Origin: Gemmatimonadota bacterium
GTDB lineage: Bacteria; Gemmatimonadota; Gemmatimonadetes; Longimicrobiales; Gaopeijiaceae
Reading direction: 5' to 3'
Length of the DNA stretch: 64,000 nt
Assembly: GCA_034521595.1 (NCBI GenBank)
Contig: JAXHMG010000003.1
Coordinates: 1,280,001 to 1,344,000 of the forward strand
Under the pieces are notes generated by a model, which had not been told where the DNA came from, did not search any database, and saw only the letters and a program-made list of their open reading frames with translations. Positions 28,937 to 63,632 of the stretch are shown here, piece after piece. The position numbers and the translations under genes were made by a program. Within the stretch, counting starts at the first letter, position 1, and each line of letters opens with the position of its first letter.

Positions 28937-28973
28937 TTCGCGTTGAGTGACCCCAGCGTCGCTGGAGTGAACG

Positions 28974-30507: not shown

Positions 30508-30538
30508 AAAAAAATCCCCCGGGTCGCAACCCGAGGGA
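30508..30538 (-). terminator. Rho-independent terminator-like hairpin
   Basis: Minus strand TCCCTCGGGT-TGCG-ACCCGGGGGA followed by seven T. Confidence 0.6.
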
Positions 30539-46706: not shown

Positions 46707-47049
46707 GTCACGATCAGAATATCTTCATCCATGCCTCCACTATATCCGGATTACGATTGGTTGGACACGAGGTGGTGGACTGGTCCCGGGTACAGGCCGG
46801 GTACAGCGCCATCGGCGTAGTTTCGATGGCCGAGGCGCACCTTGCCCGCGCGTTCACCGCTGGGCATGTTCACGGGAACACCGGCTCGCCCTCCTTCGTC
46901 TCCGAAGCAGGTGGCCGCGTAGGAGAGAGCCCTCTCCAGCCGGTGCGCACTTCAGCTTGATTCTGCATGAGCGCCCCCTTCTCGATCCACCTCGTCGGGT
47001 CTGTGTCGGTGCGGCTTCCGCCCTGCTATCTCGTGAACAGGAGGCTCCT

Positions 47050-49278
47050 GTGCGTGTGACCGTCCGTATCGACGACGTCGTCGGCCGAAGCTCCTCGCGG
47101 GACGGCAGACCCTGGCTCTGGCCCGTCTTCTTCGCCGTGGACGACACCGCGTTGGCCGGCCTCCTGTCGGGGCGTCCCGAGGAAGAGGGCGTGCTGCATG
47201 CCCATCCCCCGGTCACGGTCGCGGCACGGTCGCCGAATCGGGGCGCTCGGCGTTCGACCCCGCCTCTGGCCCTCTGGTCGTTCGACCTCCGGACCGAAGT
47301 CCTGCGAAGCGAGACCGCCCTCGTGGGCGTGGCCGCGGTCCTGGAGCGAGGAGATCGGCCGTCCGAGGAGGCTCGCGACGCCGTGGACGAGCTGGTCGCG
47401 GGCCTCCGCCTGACCCTCGCCCGACACCTCGGCGGATCGCTGGGGCTGGGGAGCCTGCTGTCCGCGTTCGCGGGCGGTGGGATGGGAATGGACCCGTCGG
47501 CCGGGCTCGATCCGCCGGAAGGTGCCCTCTCCCTGGAAGATCTGGAACGGGGATCCGTCCCGACCCCCGAGTCCGGCCCCCTCGACCGGTTGGCTCAGGG
47601 GCCGGTGCTCGCGACCCTCCGCGGGCAGACCGCGGACATGGACCGCGAGCGCGCGCTGGGATTCTCGATCCTGTCGGGGCTGGTCGCCGATCCGGACTAC
47701 GAGGCCGAAAGGGCCTACGTCCGCCCGCCCCTGGTCTCCGGCTACCGACCGAACGAGCTCGGAGCGATCCCCGAGGACGGCGGCGGCGCACCACCGGACG
47801 ATCCGGGGTTCGGACGCGGGCCGCGTACGGGCGACCGCCCCGGAAGAACCCGCGGGGGACGCGGGACCCCGATCCGGCCCGACCTCGGACGCATCGTCGG
47901 CCGAATGCCTCCGGGGCTCCGGCGGAACGAGCGGCTCGGAATACGCGTTCCGCCCCGCATCGGCCGGCCGGTGCCTCTCCCGGACCCTTCGCCCACACCC
48001 GACCTGCCGCGACGCTTTCACGGCCTCCGGCTCGACCAGCCCGTGACCCTGCCCGAGCTGACCCGGGAAGGCGGCGCGGTCATCGGCTCCGGGTTCGCGT
48101 TCTGGACCCCAGCGGAGCTCGCCGAACCGGAGGCTCGAGGGTTCCGCACGCGCCTCCACGGCGAACGTGGCGCTCGGGTGTCGTTCGTCATGCGGGGAAC
48201 GGTGAGGGTCACCCCACGAGCGGAGGGCCGACCGACGGGTTGGAGCCGGGGGCGGCGGGGTGGCTCCCATCTGGTCGTCCCTTCGGAGGACGGCTCGATC
48301 TCGGTGTACCTGCGCGGGGCGGGCGCGGCCGAGCACGAAACCCTCTCCCTCGAGCCGGATGCGTTCCCGGTCGGTCGCATCTCGGGGGGCGCCCTCGGAA
48401 AACAGCACCTCATCGCTTGGCGCGACGCGGCGGGACGCATTCGGTCCGCCGAGCGGACCGGGGGTGGGTCCTGGGTACCGGCGACGGTCGTGGATCAGGA
48501 CGGCGCGGTCGGAGCGCCGACCCTCCTGGCCGACGCGGCCCGGAAGCGGTGGGCCTTGGCCTACGGCGCCGAAGGCGGGGGCGTCCACGTCGCGGTCTCC
48601 AGGGGACGACGGTGGAAGCGGATGGAGGTCGGCGAAGCGGGCCGCGAAGTCGAGCAGGTCGCCCTGGCAGCTCTTCCCGCGGGCGAGCGCGACAACGAGG
48701 GGCTGTTGTGGGCCGCCTGGGCCGGCGCGGACGGCACGCCCATGATGGCCAGCGAAACCCGTTCCGGGTCCTGGAAGGTGTCCGGGATCCGCGCGGCGGG
48801 AAGCTTGCCGCCGGTCGCCGGCGGGCCCCTCGCGCTCGCCGACCCCACCGGTCGCCTGCCGGCTCTGGCCTACCGGGCCCCCGACGGTCTGGTGCTCCTC
48901 CTTCCGTCCCGCGGACGATGGCGGGTGGAGCGCCCGAAGCTGCCGACGCTGCCTCGACCGGTCGGCGACATCGACGGCGTGACGATACCCGCCTGGAAGT
49001 CCGTCGCCCTGGGGTTCCGATCGGCGGACGGTGGCATTCACCTCGTCCTCCGGGACGGCGACGGCACCTGGCGACATGAGCCCCTCCGCAAGATTCCCGC
49101 CACGCCCGGAGGCGGCTCCGATCCCTGCCTCTGGGTAGCCGGGCGGAACCTCCATGTGGGCTGGCTCGACGAGCGCGGCCACGTATGGGAGGCGAGCCGC
49201 GCAGAAGACGGGACCTGGCGCTCGGCCGACATCGACGCGCTGTCGGACGCCTCCGAATCCGCCCGGGGCCGGTCATGA
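47050..49278 (+). CDS. Hypothetical protein (742 aa) with a C-terminal lectin-like beta-propeller; operon gene 1
   Basis: GTG after CAGGAGG. About six Trp-ended blade repeats. ATGA overlap with the next gene. Confidence 0.72.
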   Translation: MRVTVRIDDVVGRSSSRDGRPWLWPVFFAVDDTALAGLLSGRPEEEGVLHAHPPVTVAARSPNRGARRSTPPLALWSFDLRTEVLRSETALVGVAAVLERGDRPSEEARDAVDELVAGLRLTLARHLGGSLGLGSLLSAFAGGGMGMDPSAGLDPPEGALSLEDLERGSVPTPESGPLDRLAQGPVLATLRGQTADMDRERALGFSILSGLVADPDYEAERAYVRPPLVSGYRPNELGAIPEDGGGAPPDDPGFGRGPRTGDRPGRTRGGRGTPIRPDLGRIVGRMPPGLRRNERLGIRVPPRIGRPVPLPDPSPTPDLPRRFHGLRLDQPVTLPELTREGGAVIGSGFAFWTPAELAEPEARGFRTRLHGERGARVSFVMRGTVRVTPRAEGRPTGWSRGRRGGSHLVVPSEDGSISVYLRGAGAAEHETLSLEPDAFPVGRISGGALGKQHLIAWRDAAGRIRSAERTGGGSWVPATVVDQDGAVGAPTLLADAARKRWALAYGAEGGGVHVAVSRGRRWKRMEVGEAGREVEQVALAALPAGERDNEGLLWAAWAGADGTPMMASETRSGSWKVSGIRAAGSLPPVAGGPLALADPTGRLPALAYRAPDGLVLLLPSRGRWRVERPKLPTLPRPVGDIDGVTIPAWKSVALGFRSADGGIHLVLRDGDGTWRHEPLRKIPATPGGGSDPCLWVAGRNLHVGWLDERGHVWEASRAEDGTWRSADIDALSDASESARGRS

Positions 49279-52200
49279 CGGTGCTACGCGGCATCACGCT
49301 CCTCGACCTGATCCCCGAGCTCCCGGCGGGCGCTCAGGGCATCATCCCCGGCGACATTGGGCGCTTCCTCGAGCTGCTGAGCGTCGTGGAGCACGCCCCG
49401 CTCGCCAACGAGGGTTGGTTCACCCATGGTGGCGTGCTCCAGGGCGCCACCGATGCGGGACTCGAGCTGCCCGCCAACCTCCCGCTCCGGCTTCCGGGCC
49501 TCAACGCCGGCGTTCGCTTCCAGCTCTCGTGGCCCCGCGTGGAGCCCGTGGGCACGGATCCCGGGGACATGGAGGGGGCCCCCGACCGCTGGATCCTGGA
49601 CGTCTACGTGGGACGCATCGTCGTTCCCGTCCCCGGTCCGACGCCGGCGACACGGGTCCCGAGCGCCCCTGCTCAACCCCAGCATCTCGTCGCCGACCGG
49701 TCCCGCGACTGGGTGCAGATCACGGGAAGCGGCGTTCTCCGCATCACGCACGACGACAGCGGAACCGCGCTGGACCTCATCGCCCCGGCCGACCCCCTCG
49801 ATCCCGAGGAGCCCATCGGAGCGGTGCTGGAGCTGGGGCTGAACCCGCCCCACATGCTGTTCCACGAGAGCGGCTTCGGCATGAGCATCGGTCGGGTCGT
49901 CTGGGACGCGACCGGCAGCTACACGCCGCCCGAGATCGAGGCCCGGGGCCACGACGCCGCCTGGAAGGGCGTGTCGCTGGCCGAAGCGTCTCTGTACCTG
50001 CCGCATAACCTGCCGCTGTTCGGGGACGTCTCGTTCGGGGTCAAGGACGTGCTGTACGGACTCACCGACCCGGGCGGCGTGCAATTCGATGCCTACCTGG
50101 AGCTGGGCAATCCGCTCTCGTCGGGCGAGACCATCCAGTTCTTCCAGGAGCTCGAAGACGGAACCATCCATCATCCCTCCGACCCCGGGGCCGGCCTGAC
50201 CCGGACGGTCGTGCTCCACTCCTCGACGGAGGAGCGCGCACGGGTACGGGCCGTCCTCGATTCGGGGGCGGACGCGGTCTGGTCCTATCCGGGCGCGCGC
50301 AACGTCACCGCGCAGGGCACCGACTGGTTCACGGTGACGCCGGGCAACGAGCGGAGCTCGCTCACATTCCGCCGAGTCGCCACGAACGAGGCCGGGGAGA
50401 CGGTGTTCGGCCCGCAGATCACGTTCGTCTTCCGGAAGGAGGTCCCGGAACCGCAGCACGCGCCCAGGATCCAGGTCACGCAGGACGGGAACACGTGGGA
50501 CAACGTGGTCCACCTCTCGGGATCCACGGAAGCGTTGGCGGGCCTGGAGTTCACCGTCGTCTCGGACCCGAGCCTCACACCGGAGCGAAGGGAGCAGCTG
50601 CGATGGGACCTGGAGCACGACGGCGTCTCGCTGTCGGTGACCGGGGACTCGTTCACGCCGGCCACCTCGTTCCGCCCGGGCCTGCACGTGCTGGTGCTGC
50701 ACGACGAGGAGGACCGCACGCGGCGGCTCGAGATCGAGGGGATCGAGGAAGGGCGGCTGATCGTGGGCTCCGAGGGGGGACCGCGTGAGGTCGACGGAGG
50801 CACCGAAGGCGCCGTCGGGGTCACCGGCGTCGAAGCGTCGCACCATCTGGCGACCTACCACGAGTCGGGCGAGCGGACGGCTGCAAGCGGGGATCAGGCG
50901 TCCGTGAGCGGAGGGACGCTCACCGTCCCGGAGGGCGTCCTCGCCGAGGCCGCCCTCGACATCGGCAGCGGCGACGACCCGGACGCGGCGAACCCGGCGG
51001 AGGAGGAACCTCCCGTCCAGGCCGTCCGGATCTTCATGGTCTTCGAGGTGGATCAGTTCGCCGGCGAGTGGCGCCGGATCTCACCGGTACGGACGGACCC
51101 GGGCTGGGACCCGTTCGGGCCCCTGGAGCCCTACCCCGACCACGGCCCGACCGGCACGGGTCCCCGGGACCCGGTGGGCATCGCGTCCGGCGACGCCGTC
51201 TCCCCCTTCGTCCCCTCCGACCTTCTCCGGTGGGCGGAGAGCTTCCCGTCCGACACGGATTTCGTGGTCATCGGCCGCTGCGACGACCTCGGGCCGCAGC
51301 AGCTCAACGTGGACCTCGGTGCCGACCGGGCGCAGGCCGTGTTCGACCTGCTCACGTCGCCGTCCTCCGGATCGGAGCTCACGGCCATCGATCCCTCGCG
51401 GATCTACCACCGCGGGGAGCAGGAGAGCGCGTCCCTCCCCTCCGGCACCCCGGACATCCCGGCGGGCCGGCCCGGGCTGAGCGACCGTGCGGCCATCGAA
51501 TGGCGGATCCACGACGACTATCCGGACTCCGACACGAGCACCGGCTCGGGCTGGGGTCCGACCCGGGACGACCGCTCGGCCCGGCTGGAAGCGAGGTGCG
51601 TGGACGTCTACGCCATCCGGCCCGCCACGGACACCACCGTCGTTCCGCCGTCCGACGACGAATCCCGGGATCCCGCCCGCCGCCGCGCGCTGGTTCCGGG
51701 ACCGGACCGCACGACGTCCGAGGAGCCCGCCCCGCGCGACGTGGACCTGGGCTACCGGCTGCAGCTCCGCGCCAAGTGGGACAGCCCCACCATCGTCGAC
51801 AAGCGCGACTGGATCCCCGTGCTCGTGGAGATGACGCTCGACTGGCAGCGGGAGTCCCGCGCGCTCCCCGACGGCATGGGCGACGTGCAGCCGCAACCGG
51901 TCAGCGACGACGCCAACGCCGAGATCTGGCGGTTCCTCGGTCGCTTCGCCTACGACCCGCGGAGCGGGCAGACGGAGTTCACCGCGGCGCTGGACACGCC
52001 GGGCGACGAGAAGGGGATCTTCCACATCGTCTCTCCGGACGCCGACTCGGACGCCGACGAGGTCGTGGCGCTGGCGCTCGGACTCGGGCCAGCGCTCCTG
52101 GCGGGCGTGGACGCGGCGGAGCCCGGGAGCTCGGCCGTCCGCATCGGCGCGCTGTTGGCGGCCGTGGCCGGGGTGCTCGCCACCGACATCGTCAAGGACG

Positions 52201-55200
52201 GCAAGGCGACCGTCCAGAAGCTCGAGATCAAGCACCGCCAGCGGGACATCGACGACGCCGAAGGAAGCGTGAGCCGCGTGGTCATCGACTACACGGTCGA
52301 GCTGAACGTCGAGACCGACGCGCTCGGCGTCACGACGCGCAAGCCGGCGAAGTTCAGCTACAAGGGCGTCGGAATCGAGTACACGAACGACCCCGAGAAG
52401 GAGTGGTACGAGAACCTCGACATCGTCTACGAGGACGCGTCGTTCGAGATCGTCGACCCCGGCACCTGGGAGATCGACGGTCCCTTGGGCGAGCTTCTCG
52501 GCGTCAGCGCCGTACGGCTGGGCTCCGGCTCGGTCTGGGTCGAGACGGACCTGGACTTCGCGCTGGACCTGGGCGTCGTGGAGATCAGCTCCGCGACCGT
52601 GCGCATCACGGTCGAGCCCTCGGACGGGGTGACCGTGGACCTGCGAGGCCTGGCGGCCAAGGTCGACGTGCCGGGCGCCATCAAGGGCGGCGGCCAGCTC
52701 CAGATCGGGGACGGCGGCGACCTCGCGGCCATGATCGACCTCACGATCATCCCCGCCGAGATCCAGGCCGTGGCGGCGCTCAAGCTCGAGGGGCCCATGA
52801 CCCAGCTCGAGGCCGGCGTCCGCTTCGCCACGGCTCTCCCGCTCGCCGGCACGGGCTTCGGACTCTACGGGTTCAAGGGGCGGTTCGTATCCAACGGCAC
52901 CCGAGACCTCACCGGGCTCGCCGAGGACCCGGTGGAGCGCGAGCTCGGATGGTTCGCCAAGCCGGTCCTCGAGAAGTACGAGCCCAGCGTCGGCCAGTAC
53001 GCCATCGGGCTCGGCGCGATCGTCGGCACCATGCCGGACACGGGGTTCACGTTCAACGCGACCGGCATGGTCACGGTCGAATTCCCGGACGTCTCGGTGG
53101 TCTTCTCCATCGAGGCGAAGTTCCTGAACAAGCCGAGCCTCACCCCCAAGGAGGACAACGACGCCTCCGGCGGATCGGAGGTCAGCTTCGAGCTGATCGG
53201 GATCGTGGCGTTCGACTCGGCCGGCTTGGCGATCGCCGTGACCGGCGAGCTCGAGATCGAGAAGGTGCTGAGGGTCACGATCCCCATCGGGGCCTACTTC
53301 CCCTTCCAGTCGACCGGGGACGCGGCCTACCTCCGCATCGGCTCCGACGGGGCGGGCGGGCGCGCCGGCAGTCCGGTCACCATGACCGTGCTGCCGGACA
53401 TCCTCGATCTGAAGACCTGGTCGTTCTTCATGGTCGAGGAGAAGCAGCTCCTGGATCTGGGCGGCCGCGACGACCTGGACTTCCACGGGTTCTCCATCGG
53501 GTTCGGCGCAGGGTGGGAGTTCAAGTGGGGCGGCGGACCGATCTACCTGACGGTCTCGGCCGGCGTCCTGGTCGGCATGGGCACGCGCCCCATGACGGTG
53601 GTGGGCTCCATCTTCGTGTCGGGCGAGCTCTGGCTCGTGGTCGTGGGCCTCTCCATCAGCGGAGAGATCACGCTCCGGATCGTGCATCAGAACGGCGACA
53701 CGGACTGGTCGCTGACCGGGGAGTTCTGCGGCAAAGTCTCGTTCTTCTTTTTCTCCATCAAAGGCTGCGTCGAGTTCAAGCTGCCCGGGGACACCGCCGG
53801 AGACGCGCCTCCGCCCGATCCCGATCCGCTGGTGACCGGAGTCACCCTCACCGACAAGTTCGTCCGCGTCATCGCCCAGGCGAGCGATGTCACGGCGGGT
53901 GACGCCGTCCTACCGGAGTCTCTGGCGTGGCCCGACGTCGCGCCCACGATCCACTTCTCCCACCGGGTGATGCCGAACCTGCCTCCGGGCGGCTTCGAGC
54001 CCGCGCCCTCGGGCGGGTTCCCGGGGGAGGACTGGTCCGGCACGTCCAAGCTGAAGTTCCGGTTCCGCCTGGACGCGGTGGTCCTGGAGCTGGCCGACGG
54101 GACGGCCGTCGACGTCTCGGGCTGGCCGTCCGTGTGGTGGCAGCCGGCGTTCCGGGCGAGCGTGCCCGAGTCAGGCGACACGCCGTCCTCCGACCACGAG
54201 GGCTGGGACCTGGCCCTGCTCCACTGGGACCCGAGCCCCTGGCGCCGTCCGCTCACGAACGGCGGTGAGGGAATCGAGGCGGATCCCGCCGACGCGGTCC
54301 GCAACCTCTGCGAGCCCGCGCCGGAGCCCTCGCGCCACTGCACGCTCGGCCAGGACGGTGTGCGCCAGGACGTGGACCGGGTCGAGTTCGCGAGCGCGGC
54401 CGGCGGGACGCTTCCGTATCCGTCCTACTTCTTCGTGGATGGCCGGGAGGGATTCGGCGGCCTCGACCTCGAGGCGGTCGTCGCCCTGGCGGACGTGGTC
54501 GGAATGGGATTCGTCCCCGGCTCGCTCCAACCGCTTCCGGGGTCGCTGTCGCTTCCAGGTGTCCCGCCCGCGCTGACGGAAGCCTTCCGCTTCCCGTACC
54601 TGACCCGGGGCGGCGCCATCGCCGGCTCCCTGGGAATGACCGGGACCTTCCGGCCCTCGGTGGTCGATCCGGACCTCGTGCTGGCCATGTGCATCGATGT
54701 TCCGGAGCTCGAGCGCACCGTCGAGCGGTGCGTCGACTTCGACCGGCTCCAGCCGCACCGGAGCCTCGGACCCTCCATCACCCACGAGGACGTGGTCTTC
54801 ACCGACCGCGGCGGGCACCTGCGGACGACCGACTCCCTTCCGGCGGGAGCGCCGGACGGCCGGAGCGAGCTCCGCTTCACCTCGAAGGGGCTCGACGTCG
54901 CCCTCCCCGAGGTCTGTGACCGTGTGAGCCTGACCGTGGCCTATCAGGAACACGGTCCCATCCACGCGATCGCGTTCGACGCGGACGGCCAGCGCCTGGA
55001 CCAGGTCACGGGCCCGACGACCCCCAATGCGGCGACCACGATCTCCGTCGAGTCCCCGGGAATCACCCGGGTGGTCGTCACGGGCGGTTTCGGCACGGGC
55101 ATGCTCCAGGAGGTCTGCTACCGCTTCCGACAGGTCGCCGATCGGAAGGCCATCGCCGAGCGGATCGTGGCACACCTGACGGAGCCGGCGACCTATGCAC

Positions 55201-56783
55201 GTCGGGTCACGCGTCCCCTGCTGCCGCGGGTCTTCGGCGACCGCAACGACGACCCCGAGGATCCGACCCGCGACGAATGGGAGGCGGACGTCCTCGACGT
55301 GGCGGTGGGCGACGCGCGCGCCTGTGTCTATATGCGTTATACGGCCCCGGATCCGGAGCACCGCTATCGAAGCTTCACCGTGCTCCCCTTCCCTTCGCTG
55401 GAGCTCTCCCTGGTCAGCGTGTGCGGCATCAGCGCCGACGCCCAGGACGCCCACGACGCGGACGAGGACGCGCGCGAGGACGGGCAGGACGCCTGGAACG
55501 ACGCGGCCGAGGGCGACGAGGAGGACCGCGTCGCGCTCCTCGACGCCGACACGGAATACGCCGTCCGGATCGACTACTCGTACGCCATCTGGCAAGGGGA
55601 GGAAGGACGCGACCTGCCGCCCGAGATCGATGCCGCGGACTTCGACGCCGCGGAAGCCGACTGGCCCGACGGCGTCACCTTCGGCTCGACGAGCCAGCGC
55701 TTCGGCTTCCGGACAGCGCCCGAGGCGCCGATTCCCGAAGCGGACCTGATGACCTTCGACGCGCAGGACACGTTCGAGCCCCGGGGGCTCGTGCGGTATC
55801 TGCGCGGATTCGACCCCGTGTCGGATCGGTTCACGCACTTCCTGGACGATCTCCTCCTGGTCCACTTCGACGTGGAATGGGTGCGGACGCTCCTCGAGCG
55901 GTACGGCTACGAGATGCGCCTGACCGTGAAGCGGACCGATCCGAAGCCGCCGGACCCGGGCACCGGACCCCTCACCGACCTGTCGGTCCCCTCCGCGTGG
56001 ACCTGGGAGCCGCTACCGGTCTGGATGCGGAACGAGGGCGACATCCGGGTCGCGGTCGCGGCCGACGAGTCCGAGTGCGTCGAGCCGCCCGTTTCGGGCG
56101 GGACGGCAGCCGTATCGGCGGAGCTGGACCCACGGGCCGAGTACGACCTCGAGCTCACCGCGGTTCCGCTCGGCGCGGGCGACGACGAGCCGGGAGTCCA
56201 CATCTCGCGCACCCACTTCCGGACGTCCCGGTACGGGGCCGCCCCCGAGCTCGTCGAGGCGCTCGGCCTGAGCGATCCGGGGGCTCCGTACGCGCCGCCG
56301 CCGACCGAAGCATTGGTCACGGGACGGGCCACGCCCGGCACCGGGGAGCCCGACGATGTGGCGCTGGACGAATGCCTGGCCGCGATGGGCCTCGACCCGT
56401 TCCCGCTTCCGGACACGCCCCGGACGGTGCTGCTGTGGATCGACGACGGGGGCTGGCGGCTCGCCGGCATTCTCCTGGACGCGGACGAATCGCTCTTCCG
56501 TGCCCCACGCCTCGAGGAGGTCGTCTCCACCGCAGACACGGGCTCGGAGCCGGACCCACGCCTCGAGGTGGTCGAAGCCCAAGTCGGTGGGACCACATTC
56601 GAGGTCCGGCACCGCAACGAGGCCGGCACCCGCGTGCTCCTCGCGCCGACGTCGCCGGCGGCCCTCAGCCACCCGGACGGGACGCTGCCCCTCGTCGTCC
56701 GGTTCAGGGATCGCGGCGCGGTGCTGGAAGGCGCGCGCACGCTGACGACGCTTCCCTACATCGTGATCAAGGAGTCGGTATGA
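49275..56783 (+). CDS. Giant beta-rich protein (2502 aa) with an OmpA_C-like domain and a DUF6603-like region; operon gene 2
   Basis: ATG at 49275 coupled to the upstream stop, strong GC3 bias. IGRCDDLG...N..L...RA motif. GLYGF.G.F..N...YAIGLGAIVGT..D.GF segment. Family assignment is from recollection. Confidence 0.8.
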   Translation: MTVLRGITLLDLIPELPAGAQGIIPGDIGRFLELLSVVEHAPLANEGWFTHGGVLQGATDAGLELPANLPLRLPGLNAGVRFQLSWPRVEPVGTDPGDMEGAPDRWILDVYVGRIVVPVPGPTPATRVPSAPAQPQHLVADRSRDWVQITGSGVLRITHDDSGTALDLIAPADPLDPEEPIGAVLELGLNPPHMLFHESGFGMSIGRVVWDATGSYTPPEIEARGHDAAWKGVSLAEASLYLPHNLPLFGDVSFGVKDVLYGLTDPGGVQFDAYLELGNPLSSGETIQFFQELEDGTIHHPSDPGAGLTRTVVLHSSTEERARVRAVLDSGADAVWSYPGARNVTAQGTDWFTVTPGNERSSLTFRRVATNEAGETVFGPQITFVFRKEVPEPQHAPRIQVTQDGNTWDNVVHLSGSTEALAGLEFTVVSDPSLTPERREQLRWDLEHDGVSLSVTGDSFTPATSFRPGLHVLVLHDEEDRTRRLEIEGIEEGRLIVGSEGGPREVDGGTEGAVGVTGVEASHHLATYHESGERTAASGDQASVSGGTLTVPEGVLAEAALDIGSGDDPDAANPAEEEPPVQAVRIFMVFEVDQFAGEWRRISPVRTDPGWDPFGPLEPYPDHGPTGTGPRDPVGIASGDAVSPFVPSDLLRWAESFPSDTDFVVIGRCDDLGPQQLNVDLGADRAQAVFDLLTSPSSGSELTAIDPSRIYHRGEQESASLPSGTPDIPAGRPGLSDRAAIEWRIHDDYPDSDTSTGSGWGPTRDDRSARLEARCVDVYAIRPATDTTVVPPSDDESRDPARRRALVPGPDRTTSEEPAPRDVDLGYRLQLRAKWDSPTIVDKRDWIPVLVEMTLDWQRESRALPDGMGDVQPQPVSDDANAEIWRFLGRFAYDPRSGQTEFTAALDTPGDEKGIFHIVSPDADSDADEVVALALGLGPALLAGVDAAEPGSSAVRIGALLAAVAGVLATDIVKDGKATVQKLEIKHRQRDIDDAEGSVSRVVIDYTVELNVETDALGVTTRKPAKFSYKGVGIEYTNDPEKEWYENLDIVYEDASFEIVDPGTWEIDGPLGELLGVSAVRLGSGSVWVETDLDFALDLGVVEISSATVRITVEPSDGVTVDLRGLAAKVDVPGAIKGGGQLQIGDGGDLAAMIDLTIIPAEIQAVAALKLEGPMTQLEAGVRFATALPLAGTGFGLYGFKGRFVSNGTRDLTGLAEDPVERELGWFAKPVLEKYEPSVGQYAIGLGAIVGTMPDTGFTFNATGMVTVEFPDVSVVFSIEAKFLNKPSLTPKEDNDASGGSEVSFELIGIVAFDSAGLAIAVTGELEIEKVLRVTIPIGAYFPFQSTGDAAYLRIGSDGAGGRAGSPVTMTVLPDILDLKTWSFFMVEEKQLLDLGGRDDLDFHGFSIGFGAGWEFKWGGGPIYLTVSAGVLVGMGTRPMTVVGSIFVSGELWLVVVGLSISGEITLRIVHQNGDTDWSLTGEFCGKVSFFFFSIKGCVEFKLPGDTAGDAPPPDPDPLVTGVTLTDKFVRVIAQASDVTAGDAVLPESLAWPDVAPTIHFSHRVMPNLPPGGFEPAPSGGFPGEDWSGTSKLKFRFRLDAVVLELADGTAVDVSGWPSVWWQPAFRASVPESGDTPSSDHEGWDLALLHWDPSPWRRPLTNGGEGIEADPADAVRNLCEPAPEPSRHCTLGQDGVRQDVDRVEFASAAGGTLPYPSYFFVDGREGFGGLDLEAVVALADVVGMGFVPGSLQPLPGSLSLPGVPPALTEAFRFPYLTRGGAIAGSLGMTGTFRPSVVDPDLVLAMCIDVPELERTVERCVDFDRLQPHRSLGPSITHEDVVFTDRGGHLRTTDSLPAGAPDGRSELRFTSKGLDVALPEVCDRVSLTVAYQEHGPIHAIAFDADGQRLDQVTGPTTPNAATTISVESPGITRVVVTGGFGTGMLQEVCYRFRQVADRKAIAERIVAHLTEPATYARRVTRPLLPRVFGDRNDDPEDPTRDEWEADVLDVAVGDARACVYMRYTAPDPEHRYRSFTVLPFPSLELSLVSVCGISADAQDAHDADEDAREDGQDAWNDAAEGDEEDRVALLDADTEYAVRIDYSYAIWQGEEGRDLPPEIDAADFDAAEADWPDGVTFGSTSQRFGFRTAPEAPIPEADLMTFDAQDTFEPRGLVRYLRGFDPVSDRFTHFLDDLLLVHFDVEWVRTLLERYGYEMRLTVKRTDPKPPDPGTGPLTDLSVPSAWTWEPLPVWMRNEGDIRVAVAADESECVEPPVSGGTAAVSAELDPRAEYDLELTAVPLGAGDDEPGVHISRTHFRTSRYGAAPELVEALGLSDPGAPYAPPPTEALVTGRATPGTGEPDDVALDECLAAMGLDPFPLPDTPRTVLLWIDDGGWRLAGILLDADESLFRAPRLEEVVSTADTGSEPDPRLEVVEAQVGGTTFEVRHRNEAGTRVLLAPTSPAALSHPDGTLPLVVRFRDRGAVLEGARTLTTLPYIVIKESV

Positions 56784-59700
56784 AGCCGCTGCCGCCCAGC
56801 TGGGCCATGGGCGCACACGCCCTGGACGGCGCCGGAGATCCTCACCTCCAACCGGGGGCCCACTTCCGCCTGGCCACCGCGCCCGTGCTGGGGCTTCCGC
56901 TCCGTCCACTGCTCGTCTACAAGCACCGCCTCCATCCCGGCGAGGCGAACGAGGCCATGCAGACGGAGATCCGGTGGACGGACAGTGCCGGACGCACGCT
57001 CACGCCCCCCTTCGACGTGACGCCCGACAACCCGGTAACCGGGCACCTGCCCGTGAGCCAGACGCGCCGCTGCATCTGGATCGAAGTCGCGGCCGAATCC
57101 CCGTCCGACCGGGCGAGAAATCCCGGGGGGCTTACCCGGAATCTCGACGCCGACATCCGCCGCACCATCGACCGGGTCGACCTCGACGCCGTGTCGGGCC
57201 CGATCCGGCTCCGGAGAGACATCCTCGACCTCGTACGCCGCCTCCCCGACTTCGTCTTCCGTCCCGGGCTCAAGGTCGACGCGTTCCTGGAATCGATTCA
57301 GGGCATGTCGTTCCTCGGCTCGCGGACCGAGGCGCCCTACGTGCTGAGCGCGTCGTCGCTCTCGGGCGTGGTGGTGAGCGGCACCGGACGGGTCCAAGGG
57401 GCGCGTTGGCTGGAGTGGGGACGGACCCGGACCAAGCGAGCCCTCTGGCGGGTGCTGCCGATGCCGGTCTCCTCGGGGCCTCGGCACCTCGCTCCGTCCG
57501 ACGCCCGCGACCAGGCGCTGGAGCGGGTGCGGCGAGGCGCGCCGCGGCGATACGGGCTCCACGACCGGCCGGAGACGGCCAACGCCGCGAGCGCTCCGGC
57601 CGCCACCGTCGGCGCGGAGGAACGGCGGGTGACCCGGCTCAGCGAGGATCTCGAGCCCAGCCTCGAAGCGCTGGTGAACGACACCTCGGCAGCTCCTCTG
57701 GAGCTCGGGATCGATCAGGAGCTGGACCAGAGCGAGTCGGACCAGGTCGCCGCCGCCCGTTATCCCGCGTTGGGGACGGTGCTCCTGTCCGCGCTCGATC
57801 CCGGAGTGGCCCGCTGGCTCGGCTTCATGGACCGGGACGAGGACGACACGGCGCCGGTGGGGAGCATCGTGATCTACACCATCCGGGGGTTCTGGTCCGT
57901 CGACTGGAACGCCCTGTCGCTATGGCGGAAGCTCGCCTTCTTTCCGGCCGCTTCGGCGGGAATCGTGTCGTCCTCCCAGCCGCCCGACGGCTCGGTGCCC
58001 TTCGACATCCCCCGCAGATCTCCGGACGGCACCCCCGTATTCGACCTGGAGGTGCCCGCGGTCGCGACGATCGGCGTGCCACCGGACGCGCCGACCGCCC
58101 CGGTTCTCGAGCCTCCGGTAGCGCCCGAGGGTGCGCCGGACGCGGATCCCATGGGCGTCTGGATGCCGGGCACGCCGGGAAGCTACCGCCGTCACGTCCA
58201 GATGCCCGTTCGCGACCTCGTGCCCGGCGCCTGTCTCGCCGTGGCGCGGGAGCACGACGGGACCCGGGAGCGGCTGAACCGCACCGTCCTGGTCGATCCC
58301 GGCACCGGCGAGGAGCGCGCCATGAGCCTCCACGCCGCGCTCCCCGGCAGCGCGGATTCCGCCGATCAGGGCTCGATCAGCGACCGGGAAGCCCACCCGG
58401 ACGCCACGGAGTACCACGCGGCTCAGGCCGACTGGTTCGGTCGTTGGAGCGCCTGGCGTGCGCGGACCATCGGCCCCAAGGAGCCGCCCGCGCCCCCCAT
58501 CCCGGTGATCCAGCCTCGATACGAGATGGCCGAGACGCCGGACCCGATGCACGACGACCCGCTCTGGGGGCGCCTGAGCGTCCGTGTGCCCGTACCTCCG
58601 GCGACGGACCTCGCGCCCGGCTCGCACCCCCTGGACCGGATCCGCATCGAAGGCACCGTGGCCGGTGCCACGACGGAGTCGTTCGCGGTCGAAGAGCCCG
58701 TTCCCTCGGCGCCCGGGCCCCATCTCGAAGTGGAGATTCCGGTCCCGACGGGCTCCGGCGGAACGGCGGCGTTCCTGGCCCGGACGGAGATCGCGACGGC
58801 CACCATGACCGCCCGGTGGATCGACGCCGATGGCGGCCTCTCCGAGCCGACGGAGCCTCGAGAGCTCGACCTGGTCGATCCGCGCCCTCCGGAGCCCGTG
58901 ACCATCGACCCGACGCTCACGTACACCGCCCGGCCCGACGCGACCGGGCGCGCGCTCGCGCGCATCGGTTGGACGGCCTCGTCCACGCAGCACGGCTTCC
59001 GCGTCTACTTCAGCGACGAAACGCGGCTGGTCGAGCGGATGGAGTCGGTCGCGGCGGGTTCCGGCTCCGACGCGTCCACGGCCCAAGCGTTCCTCGACGA
59101 TCTGGCGGCGGCCGGGGGACCGGCCGAGCGCGCCGCGGCCTTCACCGCGCCGGGGCGCCCGGAGCAGTTCCGGCGGGACTGGTTCGAGAACCTCACGGGC
59201 GACCTGCTCGTGGGCTCGGGAGACATGCGCTTCCAGCACGACCTCTCCGCGTCGCTCCGCTCACTGGCGTTCTATCGCGTGGTGGCCGTCAGCGAGACGA
59301 ACGTGGAGTCGGAGTTCGCCGGCTCCCCGCTCGTCCCGCGGGCCGTCCCCAACAGCGGGCCGCCGCCCCGGCCGATGATCGAGGTCGTCCCGCGCGACCG
59401 CATCCCCGACGACGTGACCGTGGGAGAGCAGGAAGTCCTCCTTCGCGTCCGGGTGGTCCGCGGCGCGCAGCCCGTCTCGCGGGTCCGGCTCCGCCGGAGC
59501 TCTCGTGGGGGCGGAGACGCGCTGCGGATGCCCGTGGCGCTCGAGACGGACGTGACCCCCTCCGAGCCGGGGCCTGACGGAATCGTGACCGTGGACCTGG
59601 TCGACACCGGAGCGTACAACCACGAGCCCGGCCGGATTCTGCGTCCCTTCAGCAACTACTTCTGGCGGGTCGAGGTCCAGGCGCCGAACGAGCCCGGCAG

Positions 59701-60100
59701 CTCCCTCCCGGGCGAATGGAGCCCGCCCAGCGACGCGACCTCGACCCTTCTCGTCGGGCCACGACCCGGCCCCGTGACGGGGCTCGCTGCCGCCGCCAGC
59801 CCTCCACCCGACCCCGTGGTCACCCTTACCTGGGAGCACCCGGAGCCGCTCCTGCCCGGCGGGATCGGCGGCTTCCGCTTCGAGATCCTGCGGCGGCAGG
59901 ACGGTCGCGAAAAGGTCGTGGGCCAGCTGGCCGCGGACGCGGACCCCGCCGCGGGTGGCCGAAGCGGACCCGGGGACTCGTTCACCTGGACGGAGACGCT
60001 CGAAGGCGCCGACCCCGCGGAGGACCTCGAGTACAGGGTGGTGACCCTGGACCCACTCGGCCGCCGTGGGCCGGTCTCGTCCCCCGTCAGCCTTCCCTGA
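56780..60100 (+). CDS. Hypothetical protein (1106 aa) with FN3/Ig-like repeats; operon gene 3
   Basis: ATG at 56780 after AAGGAG, ATGA overlap. FN3-like ends YHAAQADWFGRWSAW, FYRVVAVSETNVES, YFWRVEVQ, YRVVTLDPLGRRGP. Confidence 0.78.
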   Translation: MKPLPPSWAMGAHALDGAGDPHLQPGAHFRLATAPVLGLPLRPLLVYKHRLHPGEANEAMQTEIRWTDSAGRTLTPPFDVTPDNPVTGHLPVSQTRRCIWIEVAAESPSDRARNPGGLTRNLDADIRRTIDRVDLDAVSGPIRLRRDILDLVRRLPDFVFRPGLKVDAFLESIQGMSFLGSRTEAPYVLSASSLSGVVVSGTGRVQGARWLEWGRTRTKRALWRVLPMPVSSGPRHLAPSDARDQALERVRRGAPRRYGLHDRPETANAASAPAATVGAEERRVTRLSEDLEPSLEALVNDTSAAPLELGIDQELDQSESDQVAAARYPALGTVLLSALDPGVARWLGFMDRDEDDTAPVGSIVIYTIRGFWSVDWNALSLWRKLAFFPAASAGIVSSSQPPDGSVPFDIPRRSPDGTPVFDLEVPAVATIGVPPDAPTAPVLEPPVAPEGAPDADPMGVWMPGTPGSYRRHVQMPVRDLVPGACLAVAREHDGTRERLNRTVLVDPGTGEERAMSLHAALPGSADSADQGSISDREAHPDATEYHAAQADWFGRWSAWRARTIGPKEPPAPPIPVIQPRYEMAETPDPMHDDPLWGRLSVRVPVPPATDLAPGSHPLDRIRIEGTVAGATTESFAVEEPVPSAPGPHLEVEIPVPTGSGGTAAFLARTEIATATMTARWIDADGGLSEPTEPRELDLVDPRPPEPVTIDPTLTYTARPDATGRALARIGWTASSTQHGFRVYFSDETRLVERMESVAAGSGSDASTAQAFLDDLAAAGGPAERAAAFTAPGRPEQFRRDWFENLTGDLLVGSGDMRFQHDLSASLRSLAFYRVVAVSETNVESEFAGSPLVPRAVPNSGPPPRPMIEVVPRDRIPDDVTVGEQEVLLRVRVVRGAQPVSRVRLRRSSRGGGDALRMPVALETDVTPSEPGPDGIVTVDLVDTGAYNHEPGRILRPFSNYFWRVEVQAPNEPGSSLPGEWSPPSDATSTLLVGPRPGPVTGLAAAASPPPDPVVTLTWEHPEPLLPGGIGGFRFEILRRQDGREKVVGQLAADADPAAGGRSGPGDSFTWTETLEGADPAEDLEYRVVTLDPLGRRGPVSSPVSLP

Positions 60101-60109
60101 GGAACCCCG

Positions 60110-63100
60110 ATGCACACGCTGACCCCCGATCCATCCACCCTCGGGATCCAGACGCCGCAGATCGGGCCCTGGTTCTCCTCCGACACCGTCGAGTTGCCGG
60201 TCGCCGACGACCGCCTCGCCGTGCCGCTCACGCTCGACGGCGGTGTGGCCTGGCTCCCTCCGGCGGGCGGGCTGCTCTCCTTCCGCATCGCGACGCCCGA
60301 CCGACCTCGGCGCTTGGCGGGCTTGCGCGACGGCGCGGGCGAGCCGGCCTTCGACGACGGTCACCTGGTCGCCGAGTTCCGCTTGCTCCCCGAGGTGGAG
60401 GCGCGCATCGATCGGCTGATGCGTGTGCTTCCGACCCTCGCCGGCGACGACGCCGCGGGCGAAGGCCGCACGCGACCCCGCGTTCGCACGTTCGCCCTGG
60501 AGATCATGACGGCGTCCCCGTCGTGGACGATGCTCGAGTCGCTCCTGCCGGCGACCTTCGGCCTCCCGGGTAGCTCGACCGCGGAGAACGTGGCGCACGT
60601 CGGGCTGACGGGGACGGCGCCGCTCGGCAACGGCCCCAAGCCCATGGGGGACCTGAAGCGAACCGGGAAGCTCATCGGCGCCTTCGAGCAGCTGCTCCAC
60701 TTCCCGACCAGCACGGACGTGAAGCTCTGGGCATTCGACCACCGCGGCCGGGCCCTGGACCCCGGAGCGGTGGCCTGCTGGTGGCTCTTCCTGGCCACAC
60801 ACGCCGACAACGGCTTCGACGGCCTCTGGGCGGAAGGGCTGGAAACGGGAGACCAGCGGACGGCCCCGATCGCCACGGATGCGGACGAGCTCGTCCTGCA
60901 CCTCGTGGATCCCCAGGGCGGCGCTCCGCTGGAGCCGACTCTGGCCCGCATCGACGGCGCCAACCTCGACGGAACCGGCACCGTCCGTCGCCGGGGAGCC
61001 GAGGACGAGGCGGCGACGCTGTCCTTTACCGACCCACCCACCGATGACCCCGACGATCTACCGGTGCCGCGCATGGCGCTCCTGCCCGACGGCGTGTTCG
61101 GGGAGACGGTCTCCGTATGGCCCACGGGCACGGTGGACCCGATCCTCCGTCGCGACTTCGCGAGGGTCGCCGCCCTCTCCGTAGAGCTCGCCCTGACCGG
61201 CCAGCGCCGTACGCCCGCGCCGGGCTCCACCCCCACGGCCGCGGACGAGCGGCGCGCCGAGGATCAGGCCAGGACGTCCACGCGTGTATCCGTCGCACGG
61301 GCCGAGCGGACGGACGCCCTACTCGACACGCACGAGGAGGTCATCGCGGGGTTTCGGGAGGTCTTCGAGGGGCCGGAAGCGACGGACCTGGCCACCGGCG
61401 TGCTCGAGGCCGGATGGGGCCCGATCACGCCCGCGCTTCCGGACGAGGATCCTCCGACGGCCGCCCCCGACTTCACCGTAGAGCCGCTGCAGGGCGGAGG
61501 CGTGGACGACGGTGGGACGGTCGTCGATCAGAAGGCGCTGGTTACCTCGACGCTCGACGCATCTCTGGAAGGCGCCTGGGTGAGGGTCTGGACGCAGGGC
61601 TTCGACCGGGAGCGGGCGGAGCACTTCAAGATGGACGGGGGCGCCGGCCGCGTCGCCGACGACGGGACGGTGCGCCTGGTCACGCGACTGCCCGACGGAG
61701 CCGTGGATCCGTCCACGCCCATGGGCATGGACGTCATGGTGGTCACCGACCGGGGCGCACGGCACTTCGCCGACGTGCGCTTCGACCGGCCGGCCCCCGT
61801 CGGAGGTGACCCCGCGGCGCTCACCGAGTCGGACGGCACGCCCCGATCCGGCACGACCAGCGGGCTCGACCTCGGCTCGGCGGTCGTCGTGTGTGAGACG
61901 GGCGTCTCCCACGCGAGCCTTCCGCTCCCCGACGACTCCGTGCCCTCCGGATCGTCCCTCGTCGCCCTGACATCGCCGCCGACATTGGTGGATGCCTCGA
62001 CGCTGCCCACGGCGGCCCGCGTAGCCGCGCTCGGGGGCGTGCTCGAACCCGAAGACCGCGTGCGCCTCGTCGAGCCGGCCTTCCAGTCGAGTCCCAGGGG
62101 CGACGCCGCCGAGGACCTCGCCCCCGCCACCGTCCATGCGACGGATCGGAGGGACAGCTCGGCGTGGGAGTCCGGCTTCCCCCTGCCCTCCATGGAGCGT
62201 CTCGAGTCCGTGGCGTCCAATGTGGGCGATGCCGAGGGCCGGGGGGCCGTCGGCGCCGTGCCCGCTCTTTCGCGCTACCATGACTTCCTGCATCACCGCC
62301 ACGGCAATCCGAATGCTCCCGCCGCGCCGGACACGCACGGGACCGGGGTGAGGGTGCGCGGGCCGGCAGCCCGCCTGCTCGCCGAGTACGCCCGGGATCG
62401 CACGAGCGAGAGCACGTTGGACCTCGTCGCCCGAGCGGCCACGCCCGTGCCGGAACCGTCCGACGTGGACGGCGACGCCCTCTGGATCGCCGGCCTCCGA
62501 ACGGTGGCCGCGGGGGTGGAGGGCGAGGTCGGGCTCGGCGTGCTGGCGGACGCGAGCATCGCCGGCTTCGACCCCTACCCGCTGGGAGACGCGTGGACGA
62601 GCGTCCAGGCCTGGATCGAGGACAAGATCGGCACGCTCCCCTCGGAGCTGGACGACACCACCGCAGCGGTGGACAGCATCGTGCGCGCGCTCGACCGTCG
62701 CTTCCTGGCCGCGACGCGGGGAGCGCGCGAGGGCGCCACGTCCCTCCAGGCCGCCCTCGGCAGGGCCCAGGACATCGTCTACATCGAGACTCCCGCCTTC
62801 GACGCCCGCGCGTTCGACGACGGCGACGACAGGCTCGACCTCTGGTCCACACTGGTCCAGCGGATGAAGGACAATCGAGCGCTCCACCTCGTGATCTGTG
62901 CGCCCGTATGGTTGCTCGACGGTGCTCCGGCACCGCTTCAGAGGGTACGGGACGCCATCATGAACGAGGCTCTGTCAGCACTTCAGGAAGGCTCCACCGG
63001 AACGGCCGTCCCGACGCTGGAGGAACGCGTGGCCACCTTCTCTCCGGCGGCGGGCCCCGGACGCTCCCTGCGCATCGCATCCACCTCCGTCGTGGTCGAC

Positions 63101-63523
63101 GACGCCTACGCCTTCACCGGCTCGACCCACCTATGGCGGAGGGGCCTGAGCTTCGACTCGTCGTACGCGGTCGCCGCATTCGACGAGCGCGTCCGGGACG
63201 GCCGGCCCGCGGCCGTGACCAGCTTCCGGAGGCGGTTGCTGGCCGGACGCCTCGGGGTCGAGCTCGGGGGCGTCCCCGACGACCCCGTGCAGATCGTGCG
63301 GGCGGTCCGGGACCTCTCTTCCCGGGGCGGCTTCGGCCGGCTCGCCGCCGAGCGGATCCGGGCACCCGACCCCACGCTCACCACCTCCACGGATCCGTCG
63401 ACGATCAGCGACGTCGATCTCTGGGATCCCGACGGGAGCCCGCCGGCGAGCTTCAACCCCGTGGAGTGGATCGCCGGCATGCTGACCACCGTGCAGACCG
63501 AGGAGCTCACACCGGCGCCGTAG
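60110..63523 (+). CDS. Hypothetical protein (1137 aa) with a C-terminal degenerate phospholipase D-like fold; operon gene 4
   Basis: GAGGA RBS, 9 nt after the gene 3 stop. H.TGVRVRGPAA, AQDIVYIETP.F, RIASTSVVVDD....GSTH...R....DS. Confidence 0.78.
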   Translation: MHTLTPDPSTLGIQTPQIGPWFSSDTVELPVADDRLAVPLTLDGGVAWLPPAGGLLSFRIATPDRPRRLAGLRDGAGEPAFDDGHLVAEFRLLPEVEARIDRLMRVLPTLAGDDAAGEGRTRPRVRTFALEIMTASPSWTMLESLLPATFGLPGSSTAENVAHVGLTGTAPLGNGPKPMGDLKRTGKLIGAFEQLLHFPTSTDVKLWAFDHRGRALDPGAVACWWLFLATHADNGFDGLWAEGLETGDQRTAPIATDADELVLHLVDPQGGAPLEPTLARIDGANLDGTGTVRRRGAEDEAATLSFTDPPTDDPDDLPVPRMALLPDGVFGETVSVWPTGTVDPILRRDFARVAALSVELALTGQRRTPAPGSTPTAADERRAEDQARTSTRVSVARAERTDALLDTHEEVIAGFREVFEGPEATDLATGVLEAGWGPITPALPDEDPPTAAPDFTVEPLQGGGVDDGGTVVDQKALVTSTLDASLEGAWVRVWTQGFDRERAEHFKMDGGAGRVADDGTVRLVTRLPDGAVDPSTPMGMDVMVVTDRGARHFADVRFDRPAPVGGDPAALTESDGTPRSGTTSGLDLGSAVVVCETGVSHASLPLPDDSVPSGSSLVALTSPPTLVDASTLPTAARVAALGGVLEPEDRVRLVEPAFQSSPRGDAAEDLAPATVHATDRRDSSAWESGFPLPSMERLESVASNVGDAEGRGAVGAVPALSRYHDFLHHRHGNPNAPAAPDTHGTGVRVRGPAARLLAEYARDRTSESTLDLVARAATPVPEPSDVDGDALWIAGLRTVAAGVEGEVGLGVLADASIAGFDPYPLGDAWTSVQAWIEDKIGTLPSELDDTTAAVDSIVRALDRRFLAATRGAREGATSLQAALGRAQDIVYIETPAFDARAFDDGDDRLDLWSTLVQRMKDNRALHLVICAPVWLLDGAPAPLQRVRDAIMNEALSALQEGSTGTAVPTLEERVATFSPAAGPGRSLRIASTSVVVDDAYAFTGSTHLWRRGLSFDSSYAVAAFDERVRDGRPAAVTSFRRRLLAGRLGVELGGVPDDPVQIVRAVRDLSSRGGFGRLAAERIRAPDPTLTTSTDPSTISDVDLWDPDGSPPASFNPVEWIAGMLTTVQTEELTPAP

Positions 63524-63632
63524 CGTTCTGGATCCCCACGGAGCGCCTTGGCGGCGACGCCTTGCGGGACCGGCCCGGGCGTGAATAGTTACTAGCCGTC
63601 ACGGCTCCTGCCCCACCCCGGCCCCCACCTCG

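Follow-up and report, generated by a model that had tools for sequence, protein, structure and literature searches.

A conserved three-gene module

We analysed a stretch of 64,000 nucleotides (nt) from a Gemmatimonadota bacterium (contig JAXHMG010000003.1, positions 1,280,001 to 1,344,000), referred to below as the window, with a G+C content of approximately 70%. A block of four reading frames, g1 to g4, occupies positions 47050-63523, and its last three genes, g2, g3 and g4, were found to be a conserved, often translationally coupled three-gene module. Tentatively, we read the products of the module as possible parts of a toxin-complex-like, envelope-attacking particle aimed at other cells. 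The earlier note on this DNA, made from the sequence alone, had treated all four genes as one system. The genes, with protein lengths in amino acids (aa), are:

47050..49278, + strand: g1, 742 aa, GTG start with AGGAGG 6 nt upstream
49275..56783, + strand: g2, 2502 aa, first gene of the conserved triplet, putative giant acidic scaffold
56780..60100, + strand: g3, 1106 aa, second gene of the triplet
60110..63523, + strand: g4, 1137 aa, third gene of the triplet

An alignment of g3 (A1) was used to collect 79 loci from species-representative genomes, and these were searched by tblastn with the four proteins. g3 was recovered in 77 of the 79 loci; L080 and L082 are more distant. g2 lies directly upstream of g3 in all 66 loci with enough upstream sequence, g4 lies downstream of g3 in 50 of the 62 with enough downstream sequence, and the full triplet is present in 44 of the 56 loci testable on both sides. 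With start codons picked heuristically, 4-nt overlaps join g2 to g3 in 37 of 58 pairs and g3 to g4 in 19 of 47. The loci, in which g2 and g3 stand side by side at 30-45% identity, belong by their record titles to at least seven phyla: Myxococcota, Gemmatimonadota, Chloroflexota, Bacteroidota, Acidobacteriota, Actinomycetota and Pseudomonadota. Synteny elsewhere, the lack of which had been named beforehand as grounds for refuting the proposed system, was thus found for g2-g3-g4. A match to g1 was obtained in only one of the 79 loci (L004, Nannocystaceae). The core therefore consists of three genes and not four, and the four-gene system has to be given up, as g1 joins the module solely in this lineage and at the one Nannocystaceae locus. 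A collection of 5.8 billion clusters yielded 82 relatives of g4 and 24 of g3, the query counted in each case; these come from Actinomycetota, Pseudomonadota, Planctomycetota and others, and are labelled merely 'hypothetical' or 'PLD-like'.

These counts bear on the suggestion that there is no system at all, the genes being large neighbours without a joint function, moved together by chance or as selfish cargo. We regard this as extremely improbable. g1 and g4 are sometimes absent, and interaction between the proteins is something we infer; nevertheless the invariable adjacency of g2 and g3 in at least seven phyla, at such low identity and with frequent 4-nt overlaps, goes far beyond chance, and the frames in the window are intact over 16.5 kb. 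Approximately 14 kb of tightly linked coding sequence has been kept intact over at least seven phyla.

Reading frames and junctions

All four frames are stop-free and lie on the + strand. ATGA overlaps join g1 to g2 (49275-49278) and g2 to g3 (56780-56783), while g3 and g4 are separated by 9 nt (60101-60109); coordinates and open frames agree with the description given before of four intact, co-directional genes joined in this way. The G+C content at third codon positions (GC3) of the four frames is 0.84-0.91. A longer version of the g1 frame opens at 46597, and carries no coding GC3 signal over its first 450 nt (GC3 0.61 for 46597-47049). The 718-aa antisense open reading frame (ORF) that covers g1 (47026-49182, - strand) is interpreted as an artefact of high G+C, because its GC3 is lower than that of the + frame (0.78 versus 0.84) and because homologues exist for the + frame. 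Within the block no promoter-like sites were found, and one terminator-like site was seen where 3.3 are expected by chance. These data support the conclusion that g1 to g4 are real genes in an operon-like arrangement. The region upstream of g1 is:

46707..47049, no strand: intergenic region between the divergent Tle1-like lipase gene and g1; presumed promoter region and left edge of the acquired block

No sigma-70 consensus site was found in this region. A hydrophobicity scan showed no signal-like hydrophobic segment at the N-terminus of any of the four proteins, consistent with the previous remark that none has an obvious export signal.

g4 has a predicted phospholipase D fold with degenerate catalytic motifs

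An alignment of 25 g4 sequences (A2) was used for modelling with AlphaFold2, which gave a compact structure with a predicted local distance difference test (pLDDT) of 85.6 and a predicted template modelling score (pTM) of 0.89. Most of the protein is modelled as a two-lobed phospholipase D (PLD) fold, in which one of two degenerate HKD motifs lies in the C-terminal lobe:

61169..63433, + strand: predicted two-lobed PLD fold, g4 aa 354-1108 (6ohm_A: Z 22.1, root-mean-square deviation (rmsd) 3.5, 421 residues aligned)
63071..63163, + strand: degenerate C-lobe HKD motif, g4 aa 988-1018 (A990 at the His position, T992 at the Lys position, D997 kept)

Foldseek matched the model to plant PLD alpha (E 2.2e-10) and human PLD2 (E 3e-10). 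VIA scores were Z 21.0 for 6kz8_A, Z 19.2 for the vaccinia F13 protein (9fhk_B) and Z 9.3 for FAM83B (5lzk_A), and full-length Pseudomonas aeruginosa phospholipase D (7v53_A) gave Z 18.9 with an rmsd of 3.7 over 447 aligned residues. In fold, g4 is therefore closest to PLDs that act on lipids. It shares the bilobed fold with the PLD enzymes (human PLD1/2, plant PLD alpha and the P. aeruginosa enzyme), and differs from them by its degenerate HxKx4D motifs, by an extra N-terminal domain (aa 8-350) and by an immunoglobulin (Ig)-like insert (aa 445-565, Z approximately 7). Unlike them, it has no Pfam PLDc match: hidden Markov models (HMMs) of the PLDc type detected 0 families in g4 and the 25 homologues scanned, and a profile search against PDB sequences gave 0 matches.

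The position of the catalytic His in the C-lobe is occupied by A, S, T, G, D or N among the homologues, and the Lys position by Thr in all 25; in g4 the accompanying GSxN has become G-S-T-H1007. A remnant of the N-lobe motif is seen at H743-G-T (62336-62344), where 20 of the 25 homologues retain the His and T, A, P or V replaces the Lys. Loss of the HKD motifs extends to the distant homologues in L080 and L082. Conserved instead is a different motif, T-x-V-x-x-D-D ... G-x-x-H-L-W-R-R-G-L-x-F-D. The combination of a two-lobed fold at Z 22.1 with degeneration of both HKD motifs argues for a non-catalytic protein, and agrees, as far as the sequence goes, with the dead PLD fold described earlier. 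Vaccinia F13 and the FAM83 (DUF1669) proteins are PLD-fold proteins that work without classical PLD catalysis.

A LytM/M23-type assignment for the N-terminal part of g4 (aa 8-250) was considered and rejected, as its Z of 6.7-7.1 is too low to be trusted and conservation is lacking at the aligned His. The extreme N-terminus (aa 1-25, 60110-60184) is among the best-conserved parts of g4, with P6, L11, G12, G19, P20 and W21 invariant; aa 1-13 are disordered in the model.

g2 is a giant protein with envelope-type modules

g2 has a net charge of -202. Conservation among 25 full-length homologues (alignment A3) is best at aa 800-1700. The region aa 761-1960 was modelled with 45 core sequences (A4), giving an overall pLDDT of 76.7, 85-95 over aa ~1140-1500, and a pTM of 0.45, so the placement of the domains is uncertain. 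The following features were assigned:

51204..51374, + strand: core of an OmpA-like (peptidoglycan-binding type) domain, g2 aa ~644-700, from a profile match
52050..52181, + strand: predicted helical hairpin, g2 aa 926-969, the two most hydrophobic helix-type segments of g2 (Kyte-Doolittle 1.9)
52191..53789, + strand: predicted beta-meander of ~30 long up-and-down strands, g2 aa 973-1505, from the model and an alignment to Pfam DUF6603
54711..55133, + strand: beta jelly roll resembling carbohydrate-binding modules (CBM-like), g2 aa 1813-1953 (8x8h_A: Z 12.7, rmsd 3.2, 134 residues aligned)

The OmpA_C-like domain listed in the earlier note was recovered at the level of profiles, and a binding role for it is putative. 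The A3 profile matches 38 solved chains of OmpA-like domains (best E 1.1e-6), and alignment to OmpA C-domains places D671, N678 and R685, which are invariant in the 25 homologues, in the signature G-x-T-D ... N-x-x-L-S-x-x-R-A. The single g2 sequence scores 15.8 bits against PF00691 (E 0.019), below the cut-off of 27.2 bits, and is far under the cut-offs of the NCBIfam Pal, YiaD and OmpA models. Like the domains of OmpA, Pal, MotB, YiaD and YfiB, that of g2 keeps G-x-x-D ... N-x-x-L-x-x-x-R-A; unlike them, it is embedded in a protein of 2502 aa with neither signal peptide nor lipobox, and in most g2 homologues the conserved Asp stands one position later than in OmpA.

Across the four proteins only two strongly hydrophobic helix-type segments were found, both at g2 aa 930-973. 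The meander that follows has two unlike faces in the model, with 12 charged among 178 residues on the hydrophobic side and 51 among 172 on the polar side. The long run of amphipathic beta-strands described before is thus visible in the predicted structure as well as in the charge counts, and further beta domains follow it in the model. Porin matches reached Z 11-14 with an rmsd of 9-13 Å; they were read as a shared up-and-down topology and not taken as a sign of a closed outer-membrane barrel. The viral-structure (BFVD) matches of the core, to assorted tail proteins with TM at most 0.16 and high rmsd, were not accepted as support for a relation to phage tails.

A search of 1.84 billion 50%-identity representatives with the A4 profile returned 1809 clusters at E ≤0.001, 1190 at 1e-10 and 552 at 1e-30. 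The relatives matched by A4 are of two kinds, long forms of ~2400-2900 aa and short forms of ~1700 aa.

The organization of the triplet invites comparison with toxin complexes (Tc, ABC toxins), of which g2, g3 and g4 might be very divergent A, B and C subunits. In both cases three large signal-less proteins are encoded in a row with no secretion system nearby, and the first, of ~2500 aa, carries binding-type domains that in g2 are of the receptor-binding type; the order and sizes of TcA, TcB and TcC are similar to those of g2, g3 and g4. The parts themselves differ. Where a Tc has a helical channel and an RHS cocoon, the triplet has an all-beta, DUF6603-like core in g2 and a PLD fold in g4; no Pfam match to Tc or RHS families was found in a scan at E ≤0.1, which returned the OmpA match only, and no Tc entries are among the structural matches listed for the models of g2 aa 761-1960 and g4. 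A divergent Tc is thus very improbable.

The g2 core and DUF6603

A family HMM does not detect the relationship of the g2 core to any catalogued domain: the Pfam DUF6603 model (PF20248) gave no match, even at E up to 10, to g2 or to its core, and a genome-wide search with it found nothing at g2. Profile comparison does. In the Atlas, g2 aa 900-1720 lies near clusters in which 12-17% of members carry PF20248 (scores 0.95-0.96), and hhalign of A4 against A6, in which ten canonical DUF6603 domains of this phylum are aligned, gave a probability of 96.9% and E 1.8e-10 over 379 columns, corresponding to g2 aa ~1087-1527. PF20248 also matches 2 of 27 short-form relatives of g2 (E ≤0.001), and the distant g2 homologue in L080 passes its cut-off (37.1 versus 27 bits). 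Judged by these profiles, the g2 core is a remote relative of DUF6603, a catalogued domain family of large bacterial proteins.

L080 (Saprospiraceae) keeps the triplet. The product of its second gene, 1467 aa long, aligns with the g3 profile at an hhalign probability of 97.1% (E 7e-11), the DWFGRWS motif lying within the aligned part, and that of its third matches the g4 profile (99.7%, E 7.6e-27). At six canonical DUF6603 loci from the same phylum as the window, family HMMs at E ≤1e-3 found no relative of g2, g3 or g4, while L080, used as a control, was matched by all of them; the canonical proteins surveyed have open frames of 990-3579 aa. Hence the triplet forms a branch of its own and is not simply a DUF6603 cassette.

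Pfam, NCBIfam, PADLOC and PHROGs returned nothing for the four proteins apart from the sub-threshold OmpA match in g2; for PADLOC-DB 2.0 this means 0 families at E ≤0.1. A search of full-text literature, supplements excluded, found no paper on DUF6603/PF20248 or on the system. The statement that no named system has this architecture is thus upheld by the database and literature searches. Of the broader idea of an undescribed system, one part stands, in that no described system fits; it is qualified by the remote kinship of the g2 core to a family already catalogued in Pfam.

g3 and the accessory gene g1

g3 contains an invariant motif, DWFGRWSxW, at aa 551-559 (58430-58456). Its profile matched at best an FN3 (fibronectin type III) receptor domain in the PDB (E 0.021, a weak match), and Atlas clusters near it carry fn3 in 13-26% of members (scores 0.90-0.91). 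The FN3-like repeats suggested earlier are therefore only weakly supported; such parts may be present in the C-terminal half of g3. A search for a g4-docking region on g3 compared 46 loci with g4 and 10 without it, and revealed no region-specific loss of conservation. The one pair submitted to complex prediction, g2 aa 1960-2502 with g3 aa 1-450, scored 0.00 against a mark of 0.32 and was uninformative either way. The N-terminus of g3 (aa 1-45, 56780-56914) is among its best-conserved parts, with M1, W8, D20, G26, H28 and R30 invariant. The conserved N-termini of g3 and g4 may be docking peptides.

In g1 an N-terminal domain (aa 1-135) is followed by a linker rich in Gly, Pro and Arg (aa 136-330), and repeats occupy the C-terminal region (aa ~400-742). 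Between aa 473 and 721 the motif (G/R)xW occurs six times at a spacing of 47-53 aa, and weak matches to designed beta-propellers were obtained (E 4e-5); these support reading the repeat region as a probable beta-propeller, which is the part of the proposed lectin-like propeller that was borne out. The N-domain of the L004 match is 30% identical, its repeat region 26%. In the large collection g1 has only four other relatives, at 88% and 61-63% identity; their contigs are of the same lengths as those bearing the closest g3 and g4 relatives (57,964 and 23,908 nt) and as a contig of run X4 (4,344 nt). As g1 is 61% identical to near relatives for which g3 and g4 are 82-84% identical, it evolves about twice as fast, and to judge from these comparisons it is a lineage-specific, fast-evolving accessory gene.

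Acquisition as a block and sporadic distribution

None of the five congeneric genomes that were searched for both g2 and g4 contains the g1-g4 block. No full-length g2 was found in the five congeners, in which a single 17-bit match was judged not to be a homologue. A search for g4 in 40 relatives gave no full-length copy, and in two congeners a 24-aa match to its C-terminus lies at the end of a contig. These matches comprise the last 73 nt of g4 (63447-63519), with identities of 82% at the nucleotide and 79% at the amino-acid level, and lie in G004 (L002, contig C161) and G002 (L003, contig C28), the remainder of both contigs being unlike this region. No other parts of the module were found in the two assemblies. 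The possibility that the 73-nt tail is a repeat was rejected, as it is single-copy in this genome; the matches may come from copies of the module that lie in another context and were left unassembled or unbinned. Within the phylum, full-length g3 is present in 2 of 401 genomes, this one counted, with three more matches that are partial or marginal.

The edges of the block were located by comparison with congeners. On the left, similarity to G003 stops at 46769, after the Tle1-like gene; on the right, nucleotide similarity to G005 and G001 resumes at ~63560-63607, at least 37 nt past the g4 stop codon. Genes that neighbour those edges in the congeners are found at other places in this genome. 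Independent short-read contigs from run X1, which is probably the source sample, span the two junctions (46233-48273 and 62948-64000). In a further study (X4), a contig of ~92% identity extends over g1 and its junction with g2 and departs from the window left of ~46830. No flanking direct or inverted repeats were found beyond the level of chance. Neither 50,697 phage records nor IMG/VR contained the module, and a plasmid search gave one weak match to a PLD lobe. These comparisons show a triplet that moves horizontally between phyla and that reached this genome along with g1 as one block, at 46.77-63.56 kb.

Such a distribution weighs on another interpretation of the module, as an envelope machine of the host itself, for example a wall-anchored lipid-transfer bridge or a surface structure, in which the sheet would be a lipid groove and the pseudo-PLD a lipid-binding end. 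Several features would suit it: the OmpA-like domain as a wall anchor, the one-sided hydrophobic beta-sheet, a PLD fold lacking catalysis, and a host that is diderm, with four Omp85 matches above the family cut-off. A machine of this kind is expected to be inherited vertically, however, and the module is missing from the five congeners searched for both g2 and g4 and from 399 of the 401 genomes of the phylum; it occurs alike in diderms and in Actinomycetota, which are monoderm; the proteins have no export signals; and lipid-transport structures are absent among the structural matches listed. We consider this interpretation decidedly unlikely.

Neighbours of the module in other genomes

The 353 flanking proteins include no family that keeps to one position, and the largest cluster, of 10 members, is scattered over positions and strands. 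Individual loci have neighbours of interest. In L079 an M23 peptidase with PG_binding_1 lies just upstream of a short-form g2, and loci of Mycolicibacterium peregrinum (including L074) have a beta-lactamase-fold protein upstream of g2. Two Solirubrobacterales loci share a conserved protein of 321-334 aa in the same place, with a weak Nal1_C match below the cut-off. In two near-identical Actinomycetes loci, L029 (13187-15331) and L067 (13188-15347), a protein of 715-719 aa follows g3 in the place of g4; it has an HExxH motif at residue 304 and an M66 match of E 4.6e-4, below the cut-off. It is possible that variable accessory slots hold envelope-degrading enzymes in some lineages, the cases being few.

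Giant proteins with RHS repeats and PKD domains flank the module in two species of Ornithinimicrobium (L032 16666-23199 and 3-2615; L058 1-2640), and in L032 one of these, of 2178 aa, is encoded directly downstream of g4. In L060 (Derxia gummosa) a protein of 2134 aa with matches to UvrA-like, ABC and STAND-type nucleoside triphosphatases (NTPases) follows g4 on the same strand (16740-23141).

An anti-phage or abortive-infection module was also considered. Here a cytoplasmic complex would sense infection and drive the g2 hairpin and beta-meander into the cell's own inner membrane, killing or permeabilizing that cell, with the pseudo-PLD binding lipid. The sporadic, horizontally acquired distribution would be expected of a defence system, as would the location of the block in a variable region, 17 kb from tRNA-Pro and together with a multi-copy repeat and decayed genes; the absence of signal peptides fits a cytoplasmic resting state, membrane-type features are present, and at one locus, L060, the UvrA/ABC/STAND-like ATPase lies directly downstream. 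Against this, no PADLOC model matches the four proteins, Pfam and NCBIfam scans found no nuclease, NTPase or other sensor domain in them, known defence genes do not recur beside the module in the 79 loci, and CBM-like, FN3/Ig and OmpA-like modules are unusual for cytoplasmic defence proteins. We therefore hold a defence role to be unlikely.

Proposed function

The envelope-acting particle suggested at the outset is the reading most favoured by the binding-type domains, the hairpin, the one-sided sheet, the non-catalytic fold of a lipid enzyme and the sporadic distribution, along with the fast evolution of g1 and the wall-degrading neighbours seen at some loci. Since the proteins have domains of extracytoplasmic type and no signal peptides, g2, g3 and g4 might assemble in the cytoplasm into one large particle. 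This would reach the envelope without a dedicated secretion system, for example by lysis of the cell, and dock there through wall- or glycan-binding modules, namely the OmpA-like and CBM-like domains, the propeller of g1 and the FN3/Ig parts. Contact with the membrane would then be made by the hairpin and amphipathic sheet of g2, g4 would serve as a non-catalytic subunit that binds phospholipid or phosphate, and g1 would be a fast-evolving targeting adaptor.

Several points weigh against such a particle. g4 is without catalytic residues, so no toxic activity has been identified. No structural match to Tc, pore-forming or tail proteins stood out (porin-like matches had an rmsd of ~10 Å, and viral ones TM at most 0.16). 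Physical association of g2, g3 and g4 is presumed, and an internal hairpin inserted from inside would leave both of its flanks in the cytoplasm. The scanned flanks of the loci contain mostly housekeeping genes, and the module has no conserved export signal, secretion system, lysis cassette or immunity gene beside it.

In a broader form, and at a little short of an even chance, the triplet may represent a new class of self-contained giant three-protein machine, built from a DUF6603-type sheet scaffold, a pseudo-phospholipase D and an FN3 arm, that breaches or bridges envelopes without a known secretion system. It would be unrelated to Tc, contractile injection systems and the type VI secretion system (T6SS), would have spread horizontally over at least seven phyla, and would be accompanied by lineage-specific adaptor or enzyme genes such as g1. 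With phage tails and contractile injection systems in particular no homology was found in the genes or their neighbours (0 PHROGs matches, and none in phage records or IMG/VR). If the proteins do form an envelope-acting particle, this would be a new route by which envelopes are attacked, defended or remodelled without a dedicated secretion apparatus, and it would clearly exemplify how a phospholipase D fold can be recruited as a subunit without catalytic activity. By record titles, cultured and harmless carriers exist (Planotetraspora, Sphingobium lactosutens, Derxia gummosa, Nannocystis and Pseudoduganella), and direct testing is therefore feasible.

Surroundings of the block in the window

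Ten called genes upstream of the block (23.6-46.7 kb), one at 63.6 kb and ten in the 15 kb downstream were scanned. Those of the upstream scan encode a luciferase-like monooxygenase, an EF-hand protein, a truncated amidase, an NrfD-molybdopterin oxidoreductase, a ferredoxin, SRAP, a copper monooxygenase and a divergent Tle1-like lipase, and those downstream include Gate-domain proteins, a Mur ligase, a gamma-glutamyltranspeptidase, an LD-carboxypeptidase and redox enzymes. No secretion, phage-tail or ATPase genes are among these neighbours, as had been stated of the region nearby. G+C is reduced and ORFs are sparse at 26-35 kb, and the truncated amidase likewise lies in the region that had been called decayed (25.6-43.4 kb).

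The Tle1-like (DUF2235) gene, of phospholipase-effector type, occupies 45666-46706 on the - strand and is divergent from g1 (Pfam E 1.3e-88). Its product is 93% identical in G003, a genome without the module, and the gene is therefore placed outside the acquired block. A tRNA-Pro(TGG) at 30102-30176 (- strand) adjoins DNA at 26000-32000 in which G+C is lower (0.61-0.63) and convincing ORFs are few; the distance from the tRNA to the Tle1-like gene is 15.5 kb here and 4.4 kb in G003. This region looks like an integration hot spot. Approximately 300 bp at 41502-41818 are present in many copies in G002 and G003, at 74-95% identity and often at contig ends; they are probably a miniature inverted-repeat transposable element (MITE) or an insertion sequence (IS) remnant, marking the region as variable. 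The NrfD gene (35362-39582, - strand) is unusual: its 1406-aa frame fuses an NrfD-type membrane domain (aa 15-330) to the catalytic subunit of a molybdopterin oxidoreductase, and it is adjoined by a gene for a poly-ferredoxin of 636 aa.

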